Assembly (NCBI GenBank): GCA_041749855.1 | Contig: JBGTAN010000026.1 | Location: forward strand, 24,472-88,471 | From: Bdellovibrionota bacterium | GTDB lineage: Bacteria > Bdellovibrionota > FAC87 > UBA2466 | DNA: 64,000 nt | Direction: 5' to 3' | In this document: one piece after another, positions 3,389-52,811 of the stretch | Position numbering within the stretch: position 1 is the first letter of the stretch | How the letters are laid out: every line of letters starts with the position of its first letter | Made by a program: the position numbers and the translations under genes | Notes under the pieces: generated by a model | Databases searched by the model: none | Told to the model about the DNA's origin: nothing | The model's input: the letters and a program-made list of their open reading frames with translations, nothing else

Positions 3389-3751
3389 TTAGCGAATTCG
3401 GAGATATGCCTTCAATGCGAGTCTAACTTTCTCGCGTTCGTTCTCGAAAAGTGATCCGAGTTTCTTGAGGGGTTTAAAGAACTCGTCTGGCAGCGTGTAG
3501 ATCTCATGACAAAGAATCTTGCAATTCTTGGTGACGAATCCACCGTATCCGTTCGGCAGTTCGACTTCAGTCATCGTTACCCGCTGTCCCCGATCTTGGA
3601 GAGGGCTACACGTGAACTTGTTTCTCATGTCGGGCGGCGCAATGAGCACATACGCCCGGTGCGTCTTTGAACTATCGGTCGGCTGAGGTGGAGCGGTTTT
3701 CTTGATCGCTTCCTGCTGAGGAACCCAGTAAATTTCCCAGATGGCTGCCAT
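3389..3751 (-). CDS. PemK/MazF-fold type II toxin (putative)
   Basis: At 120 aa, the pattern WEIYWV...HRAYVLIAPP...CSPLQ...ILCHEIYTLP...LGSLFENEREKVRLALKAYL resembles MazF/PemK-family layout. It starts 5 nt downstream of a small RHH-like ORF. The local sequence is visibly AT-richer than its flanks. Confidence 0.55.
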   Translation of the reverse strand: MAAIWEIYWVPQQEAIKKTAPPQPTDSSKTHRAYVLIAPPDMRNKFTCSPLQDRGQRVTMTEVELPNGYGGFVTKNCKILCHEIYTLPDEFFKPLKKLGSLFENEREKVRLALKAYLRIR

Positions 3752-3756
3752 CGCTA

Positions 3757-3984
3757 TTACTTGACCTGCGCTTTGGCCATCGAAGTGGGCAATGGCGCGG
3801 CTTCTTCCTTGTGGAGCTTTGAGTCTTCAACTAATTGATGCTCGAGAAGTTTCTCTAGGCCTGCCTCAACGACTTCCGATTGGGTTTTGAAATATCCCCG
3901 TGAAACGAACATTTCGATAATCTCGGCAGAGCGATTTTTGATCTCGGGTCGGAATACCTTGTTTTTGATTTCTAAGTTCCGCAT
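3757..3984 (-). CDS. ribbon-helix-helix-like antitoxin (putative)
   Basis: This is a 75-aa ORF starting at ATG 3984, with GGAGAA about 6 nt upstream. It is small and charged and sits immediately upstream of the toxin-like ORF. The RHH assignment rests on size and position only. Confidence 0.45.
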   Translation of the reverse strand: MRNLEIKNKVFRPEIKNRSAEIIEMFVSRGYFKTQSEVVEAGLEKLLEHQLVEDSKLHKEEAAPLPTSMAKAQVK

Positions 3985-4114
3985 TTCAGTTCTCCAAATG
4001 TAGTGTACACGAAACATGTACACGAATCAACACCTGGTTGAGCGGCAAACTGGCAAGCTGATGGTTATTTTATGTTAAATATTTATTATAATTGGATATT
4101 CAGCAAGAGCAGGT

Positions 4115-4126: not shown

Positions 4127-4281
4127 GGTGATCCATGCTCCGCTAACCCCTCATCCGGAGAGCTTTCATACCAAGGAACTATTTGTGAGTTTCGCCAGGT
4201 CGGATGGGAACACCAGAGATTGTTCCGCGTGATAGCTCATCGAGAGCCACTTTTACGTCTTTCAAAAGGGCTTCCCCGCCA

Positions 4282-4297
4282 CTCTCCGCGCGGAGAG
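4282..4297. repeat. 16-nt palindrome CTCTCCGCGCGGAGAG (solo copy)
   Basis: Read directly. The 19 nt CTCTCCGCGCGGAGAGTTC are identical to 51842-51860. Confidence 0.85.
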
Positions 4298-4364
4298 TTC
4301 CAAGCAGCCAACCCTGCTAGTTTTCGCACGGCGCCTCAGGTGCTAGAAGTCTGAAAGCGAAAAC

Positions 4365-4667
4365 TTATCCTCCCGCACAAGGCGGAGACTTTCGATTGGT
4401 CTGGTACTGGACCCATTCTTCGGGAGTGTAGGTCTGAAGCGCAAGCGCGTGTACGCCGTTTTTCATTTCTTCTTCTAGTAAGCCGTAAACCATCCGGTGG
4501 CGCTCGACGAGCGTTTTACCCGCAAAGCCCTTGGTGACGAGTAGCAGCTTGAAATGGGTTTCGCGGCCCGGAGGCCCTTTGTGGTTGTCGCTTTCGTTCA
4601 CCACTTCCACGTGCTGGGGGGTGAAGACCGACTTCACTTTTGCTTCTATTCGTTGCTTTACAGTCAC
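4365..4667 (-). CDS. bolA: BolA family protein
   Basis: The translation aligns by eye with E. coli BolA along its whole length (KQRIEAKV..., HFKLLLVTKGFAGKTLVERHRMVY, VHALALQTYTPEEW, SPPCAGG). A GTG start at 4667 gives 100 aa. The ATG at 4796 would add an unmatched 43-aa extension. Confidence 0.8.
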   Translation of the reverse strand: MTVKQRIEAKVKSVFTPQHVEVVNESDNHKGPPGRETHFKLLLVTKGFAGKTLVERHRMVYGLLEEEMKNGVHALALQTYTPEEWVQYQTNRKSPPCAGG

Positions 4668-32267: not shown

Positions 32268-33185
32268 ATGCCGAAGTCTGCCCCCAAAGGAAGGGTCGCT
32301 ACCTACCAAGAAAAGGCGAAAGCCTCAGCCCAGGCCTATTGGCAGCGCGTTCGGCAACCCGTCTTGCGAGTGGTGCTGACGCCGTGGTTTTGGTTCAAGA
32401 AAGTGTGCTTCACCATTGGCGCCTTTGTCGTCGTGGCGCTCTTCTTCACAGGGCTCTATGTCACGTGGTTCCTGCGCTCACTTCCAGACATTCAGAACAT
32501 GAGTTTTCAAACGCTTCAAGAGATTGGCAAGAAGCGCGTCCACCAGAGGCTGGAAAACAAAAAGGCGCGTTATCGGTGGACTGAGATCAAAGACATCAAC
32601 CGTGAGTTTCTCTATAGCGTCGTACTGAGCGAGGATTCCACTTTCTTCGAACACGAAGGCTTCAACTTCGAAATGATGGTTTCTTCATTCGCTGAGAATT
32701 TGAAAGAAGGACGCCGTGTTTACGGTGCCAGCACAATCAGTCAGCAGGTCGCCAAGAACCTCTTTCTCTCAAATGAAAAAACGTATGCTCGCAAAGTGCG
32801 AGAGTTCATTATTACGCAGCGCTTGGAGCGCAAGTTCACCAAAAACGAACTTTTAGAAATCTACTTGAACATTGCTGAATTTGGTCCGGACATTTATGGC
32901 GTGGAGCCCGCAGCGAAGCATTACTTCAATCGCGCTCCCTCAAGCATCAATGCAGCCGAAGGTGCGTTCATCGCTCTGATGCTGCCGTCGCCTAAGCGAA
33001 ACTACTTTTCCATCTTCCAGAATCGCAACTTGCCTCGCACCAAAGTGCGCCGCGTGGAACGCGTTCTAAGAGACATGCTCTACGAGGAGTACTTGTCTGA
33101 AGCGCAGTACAGAAAATACGCGCGCTATCGCTATTTCTCGGACGCGATTCCGCGAGAAACCAGTTCCAAGATGCGCGATCGGTAA
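32268..33185 (+). CDS. mtgA: monofunctional peptidoglycan glycosyltransferase
   Basis: GT51 motifs EDSTFFEHEGF and GASTISQQVAKN. There is a single N-terminal TM helix. The start could also be GTG 32187. Confidence 0.85.
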   Translation: MPKSAPKGRVATYQEKAKASAQAYWQRVRQPVLRVVLTPWFWFKKVCFTIGAFVVVALFFTGLYVTWFLRSLPDIQNMSFQTLQEIGKKRVHQRLENKKARYRWTEIKDINREFLYSVVLSEDSTFFEHEGFNFEMMVSSFAENLKEGRRVYGASTISQQVAKNLFLSNEKTYARKVREFIITQRLERKFTKNELLEIYLNIAEFGPDIYGVEPAAKHYFNRAPSSINAAEGAFIALMLPSPKRNYFSIFQNRNLPRTKVRRVERVLRDMLYEEYLSEAQYRKYARYRYFSDAIPRETSSKMRDR

Positions 33186-34330
33186 GCTTCTCCGCCCACA
33201 CCAGCTTCAACCACCGGTGCGGCAGCTGGCCAGGCATTGTCGTTTTCCGCGAGCCTTGCAGCTGCTGGAGTAAATCCGCCCGGCAAAGGTCCGAGGCAGA
33301 CGCCGACCATCTTTTTCAAAGTCTTATTTGAGCAACTCGAAGCGAGAAAGCCAGGTCCGTAGACCATTAACCCCTGAGGCTCTGGATTCGAAACGTTAGC
33401 TGTGCCCTTTAAGAGCGAAGCCATTGCGCCTCGTTGGGCTTTCACCGGACTCTCATCTGGGTCGATGATGATTTCCCCGGAACCGCCCGACGCACTTTCT
33501 CCTCCGCCCCCTGAACCTTCGCCTACCGCAAGCGAAGTGGTTGTGATGCCCGATGCCGTGTCCGAATAGGGTTCATTGCCGACCGAAGCCATAACGTCAT
33601 CGCCGCCTGCGCCTCCGCCGCCCGCTCCTCCCATACCGCCGGCCATTCCTGGCATACCACCGCCCCCGCCCCCGGCAGGCATGCCGCCCCCTTGATTCAG
33701 GAAGGCGTTGGGATCTTGCGATATAGGACCGCCCGTTGTTGAAGCGCCCGTTAAAGTCGGTAAACCATTCTGTGCGATAGAGCGCGGATCAAAAGCCGGT
33801 GCGGCCCCCTGAGGCAATGAAAGCTGCGGAAGCTGAAAATTATTCTTGGGCATATCACCCAACATCATCCCGCGCCCTTCGTAAGGCTCTGAACCGGGAA
33901 GCGCCATCACAGGCGTTTCGCCCATGGGTTCTGGCAATTCAAACTGGGGTGCTTCGGAAAGCTTCGGCGGCTCCATGGGTTTCATACCCCCTGAGTCACC
34001 ACCGCCACCTCCTCCACCACCACCGCTGCCGGATCCAGAGCCTGCGCCGGACTGGGGTTGCTGGGGCACTTGCGGGACGTTGTTGGCGATGTTGTCCCGA
34101 GCCTGTTCCAAATCTGCTTTCGCCGCTTCGAGATCACGAATCTCCTCGTCAGCACTCTTGACCGCAGCATCCATTTCCAGAACTTTGCGTGCTTCTGTTT
34201 CTATGATTTCGTGCAATTGCTGGGTTTCACCCAAGACGCTAAGAAATTGAGCGGCCGTATCAGAAGCCGCTTTATCTGCATGTGCGGAAAGTGCGCCGAT
34301 CGTAATTGCAATGAGAAAAAGGCGACCCAT
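33131..34330 (-). CDS. secreted coiled-coil / Gly-rich low-complexity protein
   Basis: Signal peptide MGRLFLIAITIGALSAHA, an acidic helical segment, then poly-Gly tracts (GSGSGSGGGGGGGGGD; GGGGGGMPGMAGGMGGAGGGGAGG). Its ATG overlaps the upstream stop (TAATG at 34328-34332). Confidence 0.6.
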   Translation of the reverse strand: MGRLFLIAITIGALSAHADKAASDTAAQFLSVLGETQQLHEIIETEARKVLEMDAAVKSADEEIRDLEAAKADLEQARDNIANNVPQVPQQPQSGAGSGSGSGGGGGGGGGDSGGMKPMEPPKLSEAPQFELPEPMGETPVMALPGSEPYEGRGMMLGDMPKNNFQLPQLSLPQGAAPAFDPRSIAQNGLPTLTGASTTGGPISQDPNAFLNQGGGMPAGGGGGGMPGMAGGMGGAGGGGAGGDDVMASVGNEPYSDTASGITTTSLAVGEGSGGGGESASGGSGEIIIDPDESPVKAQRGAMASLLKGTANVSNPEPQGLMVYGPGFLASSCSNKTLKKMVGVCLGPLPGGFTPAAARLAENDNAWPAAAPVVEAGVGGEAYRSRILELVSRGIASEK

Positions 34331-35097: not shown

Positions 35098-35282
35098 CCT
35101 AATCCCCCCGGATAGGTCGGCCTTTGGTGCGCGAAACAAGAGCGCAGGTGAAGACCGTTTGTCTTTATTAAATGCAATCACAGGGCCCAAATTCCACGCA
35201 CTCGGTGGCGGCAGAATACGCATAAAGCTTCAGGGGGGTGTCAAAGCGTTAGACAGGGGTCGTCTTTGCCCAGGGAAATCGT

Positions 35283-35296
35283 CTCTCGCGCGAGAG
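35283..35296. repeat. 14-nt palindrome CTCTCGCGCGAGAG (left flank of HNH gene 1)
   Basis: Read directly. The 17 nt CTCTCGCGCGAGAGGTT recur at 36224-36240. Confidence 0.85.
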
Positions 35297-35402
35297 GTTG
35301 GTCCCGGCTTTTAGCTTTTTATCGTCGATAAAATCGTATTTTCAGCTTGCCAAACCGCACGGTACGAAATACATACATGTGTATTCATTTGAGACGTGCA
35401 AA

Positions 35403-36284
35403 ATGCTAAAGGAAATGAGTGATAATGGGCTGATGGCAGGGATTGTAGAAGAGGTCGGAGTGGAGAAACGCTCTACCGCGCAGGTGCTGGAGTATTTGGT
35501 TGAGATAGATAGCCGTCGGCTTTGGCTCGTTGAGGGCTACTCCAGTCTGTATGACTTCTGCGTTCGCTTTTTGAACTACTCTGAAGGAGAAGCAGGTAGG
35601 CGCATCCAAGCCGCTCGTTGCTCAGCGCAGTTTAAGGAAGTGGCCCCACTCCTGGAGCGGAACGAACTATCGCTTTCAGGTGTGAGCCTGATTGCCCCCT
35701 ACCTCACTCACCAAAACAGCTCGACGCTATTGCCTGAAGTTTGCAAGAAGTCGACGCGTGAGATTGAAACGATCTTGTGTCAGCACTTTCCTGAGGCGAG
35801 GCAAAAGGAAGAATTCTTCAAAGCTTCGCTGGATGAAGAGCTCAAAAGGCTCTTGGAGCAAGCGCACCGGGAAGTGTCCGAGAAGGACGAAACCGTCTTC
35901 TTGAAACGAGTTCTGAAGCAGTTTCTAGCGGCAAAACGCCCTCGCAATGTAAAACCTATTAAACACACGCGCTATGTTCCGAAGGCGCTCAGGCAGCAGG
36001 TTAAAGCGGCTTCACGTCACCGCTGCTCCTTCCGCTCCGCCTCGGGGGTTCAGTGTAACCAAACCGCTCATTTAGAGATAGATCACATTCGGCCGTGGGC
36101 AAAAGGTGGCAGCAGCCAAGACATTGAGAATCTCAGGGTGTTGTGCCGGGCCCACAATCAGCTTGCTGCCAAACAGGCTTTTCCCGATCGGCAGGGCCTA
36201 CCGGAAAGGAAAAAGAATCAACCTCTCGCGCGAGAGGTTCGGGCAAACGGAGGAATCCATATCCCAAAGCAAAGACTCGGGTAG
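35403..36284 (+). CDS. HNH endonuclease with DUF222-like N-terminal region
   Basis: C-terminal motif HLEIDHIRPWAKGGSSQDIENLRVLCRAHNQ. The N-terminal helical region (VLEYLVEIDSRRLWLVEGYSSLYDFCVRFLNYSEGEAGRRIQAARC) is like DUF222-HNH proteins. ATG 35403 was chosen over the TTG at 35298. Confidence 0.75.
   Translation: MLKEMSDNGLMAGIVEEVGVEKRSTAQVLEYLVEIDSRRLWLVEGYSSLYDFCVRFLNYSEGEAGRRIQAARCSAQFKEVAPLLERNELSLSGVSLIAPYLTHQNSSTLLPEVCKKSTREIETILCQHFPEARQKEEFFKASLDEELKRLLEQAHREVSEKDETVFLKRVLKQFLAAKRPRNVKPIKHTRYVPKALRQQVKAASRHRCSFRSASGVQCNQTAHLEIDHIRPWAKGGSSQDIENLRVLCRAHNQLAAKQAFPDRQGLPERKKNQPLAREVRANGGIHIPKQRLG
36222..36237. repeat. 16-nt palindrome CCTCTCGCGCGAGAGG (right flank, inside the 3-prime end of HNH gene 1)
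   Basis: Read directly. Confidence 0.85.
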
Positions 36285-36976: not shown

Positions 36977-36997
36977 GCAATGGAAAGGACTTTACCC

Positions 36998-37555
36998 ATG
37001 AAGCACCTGGCACTTGTTTTGGCACTCACTCTGACCACCCCTTCGCTGTTTGCGGCATCGATGCTCAAATATGAAGTGGAGCCCATCATTGGTTATGAAC
37101 GCGTTCAGAAATTGGTTCCTACACCCCACACGCGCGACCGCCTCGTGTACGGTGTTCGAGTGACTGCGGGTGTATTGATGGTGTCCGGTGAAGCCGAGTA
37201 CACGCGAGCAACCGATACTGAATCATTCCCCCTGACTTCCACATCGATTCAAGACACTGACGATAAAGCTCGTATCGGTTTGCGTTCCACTATCGGGATG
37301 GGAAGACTCTTAAACTTTGTCGTTCGAGCCGGAGCCCAAGCGAGACAAACCAAAAGCGAGACGACGGTTGCTGGATTCACTACCACTACCATCGCTCCTA
37401 TCCGGTACAACCCCTACGCAGGGGCGGGCCTCAGGGCGAGACTTGCGGGCAACGTTTCTTTCACCGCAGATCTCACCGTCGTATTCACGGACTTTCCGAA
37501 CATGAATCGGAACGAGTACATGACAACCGCAGGCTTTGCGGTTTCATTTCCGTAA
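36998..37555 (+). CDS. putative small outer-membrane beta-barrel protein
   Basis: The start is MKHLALVLALTLTTPSLFA (ATG 36998, with AAAGGA upstream). It has an alternating beta-strand pattern and its stop overlaps the start of the next gene (TAATG). Confidence 0.5.
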   Translation: MKHLALVLALTLTTPSLFAASMLKYEVEPIIGYERVQKLVPTPHTRDRLVYGVRVTAGVLMVSGEAEYTRATDTESFPLTSTSIQDTDDKARIGLRSTIGMGRLLNFVVRAGAQARQTKSETTVAGFTTTTIAPIRYNPYAGAGLRARLAGNVSFTADLTVVFTDFPNMNRNEYMTTAGFAVSFP

Positions 37556-51841: not shown

Positions 51842-51857
51842 CTCTCCGCGCGGAGAG
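51842..51857. repeat. 16-nt palindrome CTCTCCGCGCGGAGAG (left flank of HNH gene 2)
   Basis: Read directly. It starts 3 nt after the priA stop codon and is identical to 4282-4297. Confidence 0.85.
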
Positions 51858-51928
51858 TTCATCTCGAAAATGCAGAACCGACTCAATTCTTGTTGCCAAA
51901 CCTAACAAGGATACATAGGTATGTATCT

Positions 51929-52795
51929 ATGAAAACCGAAGCACTTCATCAGAGGGCACTGACCGTCGTCAAAAGCTATCGCGCTGCTGAAGGGGCGCTT
52001 GTAAGCATCCTTCAAGAAATAGATCGCGATCATAGGTATCGAGAGTTGGGCTACCCAAGTCTATTTGTTTATGCGACGGGCGGACTGGGAATGATCGACG
52101 CAGAAGCATACCGTTTTATTACCGTTGCTAGAAAGTCAGTGGAGATTCCACTTCTGAAGGATGCTATCGACCAAGGGAGTCTGAATGTCTCGAAGGCATC
52201 GCGAATTGCTTCCGTAATTGTCCCTGCAAATCAGGAGCAATGGCTTGAGGCCGCGACGACCCTTCCGTATCGAGAGTTGGAAAAGGCTGTTGCCGCTGCT
52301 CATCCAGATGTGGAAGTGCGTGAACGCGTGCGCCCTATTTCTGGGGATCGTTCGGAGCTGCGGTGTGGTCTAAGTAGCACACTGGAAGCAAAGATTCAGC
52401 GGGCTCGAGATGTGCTCTCTCAAAAACGTCGCGGCAACTGTTCCTTGGAAGATGTTATCGATGTAGCCATTTCCCTTTTTCTCGAAAAGCAGGATCCAGT
52501 TCGGAAGGCCACCCGAGCTACTGAGTCGAAGTTTCCAAGTCGCCCCATTAACTTAGCAAGTCGCAACTCGGACGGGAGCAGGCGGGCGTTACCTGCAGCT
52601 GTAGCACATCAGGTGGTTTTGAGAGATCGGGGCCGTTGTACTTATGTAGGTTTGACCGGGGTGAGATGTTGCTCTGAAAGATGGATCGAGAAACACCACA
52701 TTCAGCAGGTGGCTAAGGGAGGCAATCATTCCGACCGCAACCTCGCCACCCTATGCTTCGCTCATCATCAGCTTATTCATGAAAAGACTGGATGA
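51929..52795 (+). CDS. HNH endonuclease with DUF222-like N-terminal region
   Basis: C-terminal motif IEKHHIQQVAKGGNHSDRNLATLCFAHHQ. The N-terminal region SILQEIDRDHRYRELGYPSLFVYATGGLGMIDAEAYRFITVARK is arranged as in the 35403 paralog. The start is ATG 51929. Confidence 0.75.
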   Translation: MKTEALHQRALTVVKSYRAAEGALVSILQEIDRDHRYRELGYPSLFVYATGGLGMIDAEAYRFITVARKSVEIPLLKDAIDQGSLNVSKASRIASVIVPANQEQWLEAATTLPYRELEKAVAAAHPDVEVRERVRPISGDRSELRCGLSSTLEAKIQRARDVLSQKRRGNCSLEDVIDVAISLFLEKQDPVRKATRATESKFPSRPINLASRNSDGSRRALPAAVAHQVVLRDRGRCTYVGLTGVRCCSERWIEKHHIQQVAKGGNHSDRNLATLCFAHHQLIHEKTG

Positions 52796-52811
52796 CTCTC
52801 CCCGCGGAGCG
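52796..52811. repeat. degenerate palindrome copy CTCTCCCCGCGGAGCG (right flank of HNH gene 2)
   Basis: Read directly. It begins at the nucleotide after the HNH stop codon and matches 13 of 16 positions of the left copy. Confidence 0.5.

Follow-up and report, generated by a model that had tools for sequence, protein, structure and literature searches.

The REP13E12 repeats of Mycobacterium tuberculosis encode proteins with a DUF222 domain (PF02720) and an HNH domain (PF01844), and their loci are hotspots of recombination and gene conversion whose function is undefined (PMC13061034, PMC10589994). According to a 2026 preprint, DUF222/REP13E12 repeats are still without a defined biological function (PMC13061034). 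Here we analyze a distantly comparable locus in a 64,000-nucleotide (nt) stretch of a Bdellovibrionota bacterium (contig JBGTAN010000026.1, positions 24,472 to 88,471; hereafter the window, in whose coordinates positions are given), where an earlier note on the sequence had pointed out an HNH gene bracketed by palindromic repeats. We conclude that the cassette at approximately 35275-36237 is probably one copy of an autonomous selfish DNA element, similar to an insertion sequence (IS), whose protein acts on the element's own palindromic termini. As in REP13E12, a helical N-terminal domain is followed by a C-terminal HNH domain, and both are dispersed multi-copy repeats of approximately 1-1.4 kb. 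They differ in that the N-terminal domain of the present family matches DUF222 only below threshold, and in that REP13E12 has Actinobacteria as hosts whereas the present family is found in Bdellovibrionota, Myxococcota and Elusimicrobiota.

The architecture is that of an insertion sequence: a length of about 1 kb, one open reading frame (ORF), a predicted promoter of its own, perfect terminal inverted repeats (TIRs) at the limits of the unit, many dispersed copies, deletion derivatives, tandem copies, and an ORF that runs into the right inverted repeat. Unlike insertion sequences, the cassette encodes an HNH (His-Me finger) nuclease rather than a DDE, DEDD, HUH, serine or tyrosine transposase, lacks a target-site duplication, and has self-complementary termini. 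Free-standing homing endonuclease genes (HNH class, phage mob/F-Tev-type) are likewise small selfish cassettes with only a site-specific-looking HNH nuclease, and spread by break repair is plausible for both; those genes, however, have no TIRs and normally disrupt or adjoin a single target in a conserved gene, whereas the cassette is flanked by intact identical sites and its copies lie in unrelated intergenic contexts. In REP/RAYT (REPIN) systems, too, a gene sits between its own family-specific inverted short palindromes, whose type varies from gene to gene. RAYTs, however, are single-copy Y1-HUH transposases with hundreds of dispersed REPs, whereas here the whole HNH cassette is multi-copy, has no HUH domain, and solo palindromes are rare. 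Finally, IscB of the IS200/IS605-associated ISC elements also places an HNH domain in a small mobile element, and the cassette protein has a weak NCBIfam match to it over the HNH motif only. We rejected an IscB/OMEGA identity: the match scores 26.6 bits against a cut-off of 175, and there is no RuvC domain, no Rfam omega-RNA/HEARO match and no TnpA. In the full-text literature searched, we found no description of palindrome- or TIR-bounded DUF222-like/HNH elements; the cassette belongs to a large and apparently undescribed class of HNH selfish elements with matched palindromic or inverted-repeat ends.

Palindromic ends of the cassette

The sequence CTCTCGCGCGAGAGGTT occurs as two direct copies, at 35283-35299 and 36223-36239, that flank the HNH ORF (35403-36284, plus strand, 293 aa). 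This 17-nt repeat had been noticed before, with the left copy correctly placed and the right copy set one base too high, at 36224-36240. With two mismatches tolerated, the window holds three matches, including the minus-strand reading of the right copy, where shuffles of the window give an expectation of 0.03, and a chance origin is thereby ruled out. The right copy lies within a perfect 20-nt palindrome, AACCTCTCGCGCGAGAGGTT (36220-36239). Read from outside inward, the two ends of the cassette form an inverted repeat identical at 18 of 18 positions: CTCTCGCGCGAGAGGTTG at 35283-35300 and CAACCTCTCGCGCGAGAG at 36219-36236. The outer 14 bp of these TIRs are self-complementary (CTCTCGCGCGAGAG; 35283-35296 on the left), a perfect palindrome with a GC core. 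The right TIR is translated in frame as Q-P-L-A-R-E, and bases 36237-36239 complete the 20-nt palindrome. Base composition does not set the cassette apart (GC content 50-53% within it and 51-56% outside).

As single strands the termini form weak hairpins (-4 to -6 kcal/mol; z-scores against shuffles of -1.9 or weaker), which favors their recognition as duplex DNA. Read on the minus strand, the right palindrome and the GATTCTTTTT that comes after it together score like an intrinsic terminator; such a site could stop antisense transcription entering the HNH gene. It is the only terminator-like match, fewer than in shuffles (mean 1.5), and given also the weak DNA hairpins we rejected an intrinsic terminator or stable hairpin as the identity of the repeats. 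Just outside the termini, GTCTTTGCCC on the left (35262-35271) has complements on the right in GGGCAAA (36242-36248) and GCAAAGAC (36269-36276), so that a cassette-free site would fold as an extended imperfect hairpin around a single palindrome. This complementarity may be due to chance, or it may hint that the target is itself palindromic.

Limits of the repeated unit

The window is present at approximately 3-5x depth in four metagenomes (X1-X4) from hot springs and biofilms, where depth is the assembler's k-mer depth of Logan contigs, summed over contigs. Between the palindromes, the summed depth in contigs of X1 and X2 was 3-10 times that of the flanks, and past 36237 it fell back to single copy. 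Paralogous contigs, with 80-95% identity, start to match at 35275 or 35281 in X1-X3, preceded by at least three different sequences, and cease to match at 36236/36237 in X1-X4, where three different sequences follow. At the uncertain left margin (35260-35282), the sequence is homologous to syntenic intergenic DNA in a relative (L166) as far as GGTGTCAAAGCGTTAGACAGGGG, so that host-type intergenic sequence ends at approximately 35259, and the repeated unit begins at 35275-35281 (GAAATCGT). From these comparisons, the left limit lies between 35260 and 35281, and the repeated unit spans about 35275-36237, or about 0.95 kb.

The right limit falls inside the ORF. Residues P274-E278 (PLARE) are encoded by the right terminal palindrome; the remaining 15 codons, V279-G293 (VRANGGIHIPKQRLG, followed by TAG; 36237-36284, plus strand), lie outside the repeated unit and are copy-specific flanking DNA. 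In two metagenomic paralogs, the frame ends 3-5 codons past the palindrome (..RE-AMR-stop and ..RE-MGQH-stop). Across the close family (50-73% identity over approximately 260 residues), proteins are conserved up to '...CRAHNxxxAxxxFP' (residue 261), and the tails beyond it are 0-58 aa long and unrelated to each other. In other words, because the right terminus lies within the reading frame, each copy gains a different short C-terminal tail from the DNA at its landing site. The earlier note had suspected that roughly the last 20 codons were read-through into flanking DNA. Comparison of the C-terminal ends with the repeat across paralogs bears this out, as do the unrelated tails and the low predicted local distance difference test (pLDDT) scores of an AlphaFold model, which are below 50 across residues 276-293, but the flank-encoded part is confined to V279-G293. 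For annotation, this means that the C-terminal 15-100 residues of such ORFs are insertion-site artefacts.

Copy number and distribution of the family

A scan of species-representative genomes returned 330 stretches encoding relatives of the HNH protein, and a metagenome scan returned 354 more. Their hosts are Pseudobdellovibrionaceae, other Bdellovibrionota, Oligoflexia, Polyangiaceae and Labilithrix (both Myxococcota), Elusimicrobiota, and Eisenbacteria; tblastn found no relatives in 50,697 phage or 72,556 plasmid records. One metagenome-assembled genome (MAG), JACPWY01, carries at least 14 copies with 80-90% nt identity, on separate contigs with unrelated flanks. Other multi-copy genomes are DATIDO01 (a Polyangiaceae MAG, 7 copies), JANPJT01 (6), CAYNEF01 (5), and Labilithrix luteola (4). 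Many homologs are found on contigs of 1.0-1.7 kb, approximately the size of the cassette, as expected when repeats break short-read assemblies; the practical consequence is that these elements fragment MAG assemblies. In a profile search of 1.84 billion cluster representatives (50%-identity clusters), 28,059 clusters matched at E <= 1e-3 and 4,479 at E <= 1e-30. Each of the best 150 matches exceeded 200 bits, and about two-thirds of these were split into two or three stretches, consistent with the N-terminal and HNH parts. The protein family is very large and uncharacterized.

Two arrangements were seen among the copies in JACPWY01. In L048 (approximately 4590-4620 of that locus), the right end of one element is followed after 8 nt by the left end of the next, head-to-tail. 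In L054 (3847-4005/4005-4577), the left end is joined to the 3' half of the ORF, forming an internal-deletion derivative.

These copies bear on the simplest alternative, that the locus is a resident, non-mobile HNH gene whose palindromes are regulatory (an upstream operator and a 3' hairpin or terminator) and whose copies arose by ordinary duplication. The right palindrome with GATTCTTTTT would fit such a terminator, the leader of the gene has conserved operator-like palindromes, and priA is immediately followed by a second, single-copy cassette in the window, cassette B. Against this, the predicted promoter starts only downstream of the left palindrome, the palindromes mark the exact limits of the repeated unit, the lone terminator-like match is below the shuffle mean, and the hairpins are weak. 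Given also the dispersal of at least 14 copies in one MAG among unrelated flanks, the deletion derivatives, and the long TIRs of relatives, we regard a resident gene as very improbable.

Ends of related elements

Exact repeats of at least 14 nt linking the upstream and 3' regions of the gene were present at 26 of 112 family loci and at 3 of 96 controls; for repeats of at least 16 nt, the counts were 20 of 112 and 1 of 96. At 13 of 116 loci, compared with 1 of 98 controls, both sides carry perfect palindromes that share a 12-nt core. Different elements have different repeats, but the two ends of an element match. Matched end palindromes include CCTCTCGCGCGAGAGG (L006), AAATATCGCGCGATATTT (L011), GAGATCTCCCGGGAGATCTC (L015), TTTTCGGCGCCGAAAA (L060), and TTTGGCCGGCCAAA (L085). 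Across relatives, the inverted repeats range from 16-20 nt to approximately 130 nt, often with a GC-core palindrome at the outer tip: in the L002 group, inverted repeats of about 130 nt are tipped by ATCGCGCGCGAT, and in L080 one of about 45 nt is tipped by GGCCGGCC. Long inverted repeats without a simple palindrome occur in L052 (at least 55 nt), L099 (at least 72 nt), and the JACPWY01 copies. Within 4 kb on either side, the recurrent palindromes are found almost only beside the HNH ORF, so the repeat is not a general genomic motif, the outcome that would have undermined its earlier association with the gene. None is dispersed in the window or in the flanks of the family loci, and REP-like dispersed palindromes were accordingly rejected.

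The clearest case is the palindrome of the window cassette (winA), which is common to five elements from five sources: winA, L006, L009, L159, and L163. Their ORFs are 53-65% identical at the nt level, and CTCTCGCGCGAGAG stands at both ends of each, perfect in 9 of the 10 ends. Inward of the palindrome, the two ends of an element agree at one to four further bases; the flanks outside it show no relationship. At the right end, winA, L006, L009, and L163 read the palindrome as (P/S)-L-A-R-E, and L159 reads it in another frame, as A-V-S-R-A-R-G-S-stop. Since the same DNA is read in two frames, the constraint is on the DNA and not on the peptide.

In a rough neighbor-joining tree of the proteins, palindromes tend to be related where the proteins are, as in L010, L011, and L017, which carry ATCTCGCGCGAGAT and (A)TATCGCGCGATA(T). 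L162, the closest relative whose DNA was compared (68% aa identity), has ends of the type CATCTyCCrGGAGATG, whereas relatives at 54-62% share the palindrome of winA. The co-divergence of enzyme and repeat proposed earlier thus agrees with the matched end pairs across the family, but is not strictly tree-like, given the switch in L162.

This variation also bears on the alternative that the mover is a host or unlinked recombinase (of the Xer type, as a 'dif module', or integron-like or REP-type), with the HNH gene as a passenger. Short symmetric sites do bracket pdif modules and integron cassettes, and the cassette has no transposase-type domain of its own. However, the palindrome type varies while the HNH protein is the sole constant partner, in Bdellovibrionota, Myxococcota, Elusimicrobiota, and Eisenbacteria alike. 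The sites, at 14-20 bp with a GC core of 4-6 bp, are also unlike the 28-bp dif or the 57-141-nt attC, the neighborhood has neither an array nor an integrase, and the palindromes, unlike REPs, are not dispersed. We therefore consider an unlinked mover highly unlikely, and we rejected an integron cassette identity because array and integrase are missing nearby and the sites do not resemble attC.

Larger repeats were seen at two of the related loci. In L015, a 286-nt inverted repeat with 81% identity (1330-1640 and 2618-2902 of that locus) flanks the HNH gene and has copies of GAGATCTCCCGGGAGATCTC at its own limits, so that the palindrome core occurs four times within 4.4 kb. In L011 (3716-3911 and 5027-5220), a 154-nt segment with its palindrome is directly repeated at 90% identity, upstream and approximately 170 nt downstream of the HNH gene, so that the locus has three palindrome copies. 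The downstream repeat may belong to a second copy that lacks an ORF, as its left end. Rfam gave no match at E <= 1 in this segment, or in or beside the window cassette.

How the cassette might move

The data above show the repeat and its inverted arrangement, the multi-copy state, the limits of the unit, the conservation of the termini as DNA, and the flank-encoded tail. That the HNH protein itself works on the termini is what we infer from them, and how the element moves chemically is likewise our reconstruction. The protein is proposed to bind and cut the termini because it is the sole constant partner of differing termini across several phyla, and the symmetry of the termini is as expected for a dimeric DNA-binding nuclease. 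Under this proposal, the HNH protein, probably as a dimer, would recognize the symmetric termini as double-stranded sites and cut there. New copies could then arise through reinsertion of the excised segment, or through repair of a cut palindrome from a filled copy, and neither route would leave a target-site duplication.

A rival reading is palindrome-targeted homing, in which the palindrome is a target in the chromosome rather than an end of the element: the HNH protein cuts a solo copy, and repair from a filled copy, with the palindrome as the sole homology, regenerates the palindrome on both sides. Several observations would suit it: the unit is delimited by the outer edges of its palindromes, nothing besides the palindrome is duplicated at the target site, a solo palindrome of the cassette B type is present at 4281-4298, and the terminal segments differ between the close relatives L162 and winA. 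Palindromic sites suit dimeric His-Me nucleases in general. The distantly related REP13E12/DUF222-HNH loci of M. tuberculosis are gene-conversion hotspots (PMC13061034). Nevertheless, the non-palindromic inverted repeats of 55 to approximately 130 nt that occupy both ends of relatives must be borne by the element, and it is these long repeats, in the same positions as the palindromes, that lead us to favor element-borne, transposon-like ends over homing. In addition, no solo palindrome of the window cassette's own type was found in the 64-kb window or in approximately 30 kb of loci carrying that type, 7-20 bp would give recombinational repair very little homology to work with, and the target would stay intact after insertion, so that the enzyme would go on cutting its own flanks. 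We consider homing unlikely.

Several points count against an IS-like element mobilized by its own HNH protein. The link between the protein and the palindromes is one of association only. Clear flanking repeats are found at only about a quarter of the family loci, within fixed search windows, and the palindrome type follows the protein tree loosely, with switches. No target-site duplication abuts the inverted repeats of winA, L006, L009, L159, L163, L052, L060, L085, or L002; some IS families also lack such duplications. Searches with Pfam, NCBIfam, and PHROGs found HNH alone in the cassette protein, with no DDE, DEDD, HUH, serine, or tyrosine transposase domain, and HNH nucleases are hydrolytic enzymes with, to our knowledge, no strand-transfer activity. 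Among the contigs of X1-X4, we found no empty-site allele, excision, or skip joint for the window locus, and the extra metagenomic copies could come from other members of the community rather than from this genome. Finally, in the L033/L042/L062 and Polyangiaceae subfamilies, the second palindrome lies inside the ORF, in the variable linker between the N-terminal and HNH domains, and not at the 3' end.

These internal palindromes are at approximately 4625 (L033), 4598 (L042), and 4677 (L062), and at approximately +636 to +662 from the ORF start in L028, L034, L036, L038, L040, L041, and L043. They read ACTCCGCCGGCGGAGT, translated TPPAES, or CGCGCCGGCGCG, translated SAPAR, and they are far better conserved than the neighboring codons. 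In the Polyangiaceae, the sequence beside the internal palindrome resembles that beside the upstream palindrome, and the right boundary is at or within a third, often truncated palindrome. The internal linker palindrome is unexplained by either the transposon or the homing model.

With these points weighed, we still favor the self-mobilizing element for the window cassette. We put forward more tentatively, as a possibility short of an even chance, that such cassettes form an unrecognized superfamily of prokaryotic transposable elements, in which a DUF222-like plus HNH protein acts on palindromic or inverted-repeat termini without target duplications. Were this so, the long-unexplained REP13E12 repeats of M. 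tuberculosis could be accounted for in the same way. If the HNH protein does mobilize its own cassette, it would represent a nuclease class used by no catalogued IS family, and the cassette would provide a working model for a very large uncharacterized protein family that includes the DUF222/REP13E12-type repeats. The natural enzyme-palindrome pairs could also supply a set of site-specific nucleases or nickases whose symmetric sites are 14-20 bp long, for example CTCTCGCGCGAGAG, ATATCGCGCGATAT, GAGATCTCCCGGGAGATCTC, TTTTCGGCGCCGAAAA, and ACTCCGCCGGCGGAGT.

The HNH protein

The 293-aa product consists of a helical DUF222-like N-terminal domain (approximately residues 1-175), a linker, a C-terminal HNH domain, and a disordered tail. 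Its start is at 35403 or at an alternative ATG at 35415, which has a better AAGGA spacer, leaving an ambiguity of four codons. Pfam HNH (PF01844) matches residues 218-250 with E = 3.5e-7 and 30.7 bits, above the cut-off of 21.4. In an alignment of 27 relatives, C208, C218, H228, N243, C248, and H251 are invariant; they comprise the catalytic residues H228, N243, and H251 and the zinc ligands C208, C218, C248, and H251, as expected of a member of the HNH endonuclease superfamily. Because these residues are invariant, the nuclease (a beta-beta-alpha-Me domain at approximately residues 194-260; 35982-36182, plus strand) looks intact.

An AlphaFold (AF2) model built from 27 sequences has a mean pLDDT of 84.9. 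It is all-helical to approximately residue 175, followed by a low-confidence linker and a beta-beta-alpha HNH unit at residues 194-260, whose two strands and helix lie at residues 224-259. Fold matches in the PDB were weak, with E-values that were not significant: the HNH domains of ZRANB3, the Gme HNH nickase, and colicin DNases for the C-terminal part, and helix-turn-helix domains of the ParB/Noc/Spo0J type for the N-terminal part.

The description of the gene as an intact DUF222-like/HNH ORF holds for the reading frame and for the HNH domain. The window protein itself has no match to DUF222 (PF02720) at E <= 1. Weak matches occur in 10 of 27 close and 2 of 30 distant relatives, the best at 20.2 bits, below the cut-off of 24.4, and they are correctly placed at the N terminus (residues 28-198 against profile positions 14-136). 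As the matches of relatives are all sub-threshold, 'DUF222-like' is a fair label, short of established membership. We found no exact-sequence record for the window protein or for its 73%-identical homolog P0002. PADLOC gave no defense-system match for the cassette, and a type II restriction-modification system was rejected on the additional ground that the neighboring genes have no methylase domain.

Leader and predicted promoter

The leader of the cassette contains a palindrome, TTTTATCGTCGATAAAA (35317-35333, plus strand), that is a candidate operator or UP-type site. The motif is found upstream of the -35 element in L001, L002, L006, L009, L011, L015, L017, L021, L159, and L163, whatever the type of terminal palindrome. 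It is followed by a promoter-like sequence (TTGCCA, 17 nt, TACATA; 35347-35375, plus strand), read from the sequence, and by an imperfect palindrome, ATACATACATGTGTAT (35369-35384, plus strand), which overlaps the -10 element and is a candidate autoregulatory operator. The latter is kept as ATACATA..TATGTAT in cassette B and in L001, L002, L006, L009, L015, L021, L159, L162, and L163. Relatives and cassette B have TTGCxx and the ATACATA block at corresponding places in their leaders, and this conservation suggests that the cassette has its own promoter, although a strict sigma-70 scan did not call one at 35347-35375. With the left terminus upstream of the predicted promoter, that terminus would be absent from the mRNA. 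None of the RNA runs searched for the stretch contains it.

Cassette B and a solo palindrome

Cassette B (winB; 51842-52811, plus strand) is linked to priA. Its left palindrome, CTCTCCGCGCGGAGAG (51842-51857), begins two bases past the priA stop codon, and its ORF (51929-52795) encodes 288 aa. As had been stated before, the ORF stops directly before its right repeat: the TGA abuts a degenerate right copy, CTCTCCCCGCGGAGCG, at 52796-52811, which matches at 14 of 16 positions. The two HNH proteins of the window were confirmed as homologous by pairwise alignment (26% identity over 260 aa, E = 2e-17), and the leaders of the two cassettes have TTGCCAAACC and ATACATA..TATGTAT in common. In X1-X4, cassette B is single copy and invariant, with no paralogous contigs; its single copy and decayed right end suggest an old, immobile copy.

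A solo palindrome of the cassette B type, ACTCTCCGCGCGGAGAGT, with no adjoining HNH gene, lies at 4281-4298 and is single copy and invariant in X1 and X3. Approximately 260 nt from it is a PemK/MazF-like toxin ORF (3389-3751, minus strand; Pfam E = 3e-4, just below threshold) with a small partner ORF upstream (3757-4023, minus strand). The palindrome could be a scar or an empty target, or it could mark where an inserted toxin-antitoxin island ends.

Genomic context

Around the cassette, the gene order of the window is Transgly, two minus-strand genes of 411 and 251 aa, the cassette, genes of 229 and 184 aa, adh_short, and KGG. The syntenic locus in a relative, the Pseudobdellovibrionaceae MAG L166, keeps this flanking order and has two unrelated genes where the cassette sits in the window; that MAG has an HNH homolog of its own (L001) on another contig. 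The best homolog of the HNH protein is 73% identical, whereas that of the adjacent host gene is 53% identical. Together with the cassette-free synteny in L166, this fits insertion better than vertical residence. L166, the sole syntenic relative found, has flanking proteins only approximately 52% identical and is too distant to provide a clean empty site.

The cassette lies between divergently transcribed genes, so its palindromes are not terminators of its neighbors. These neighbors had been labeled a secreted-protein operon and an outer-membrane barrel gene. Both flanking products do have signal-peptide-like N-termini, but neither has a Pfam match, and the OMP_b-brl match on 36980-37555 is below threshold, so that the labels are loose. 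Farther to the left, the gene at 33131-34330 (minus strand) encodes a 399-aa product with long Gly-rich low-complexity runs (GSGSGSGGGGGGGG and similar), a signal-peptide-like N-terminus, and no Pfam match. Metagenome contigs break and vary at 33997-34031, within the part of this gene that encodes the Gly runs.

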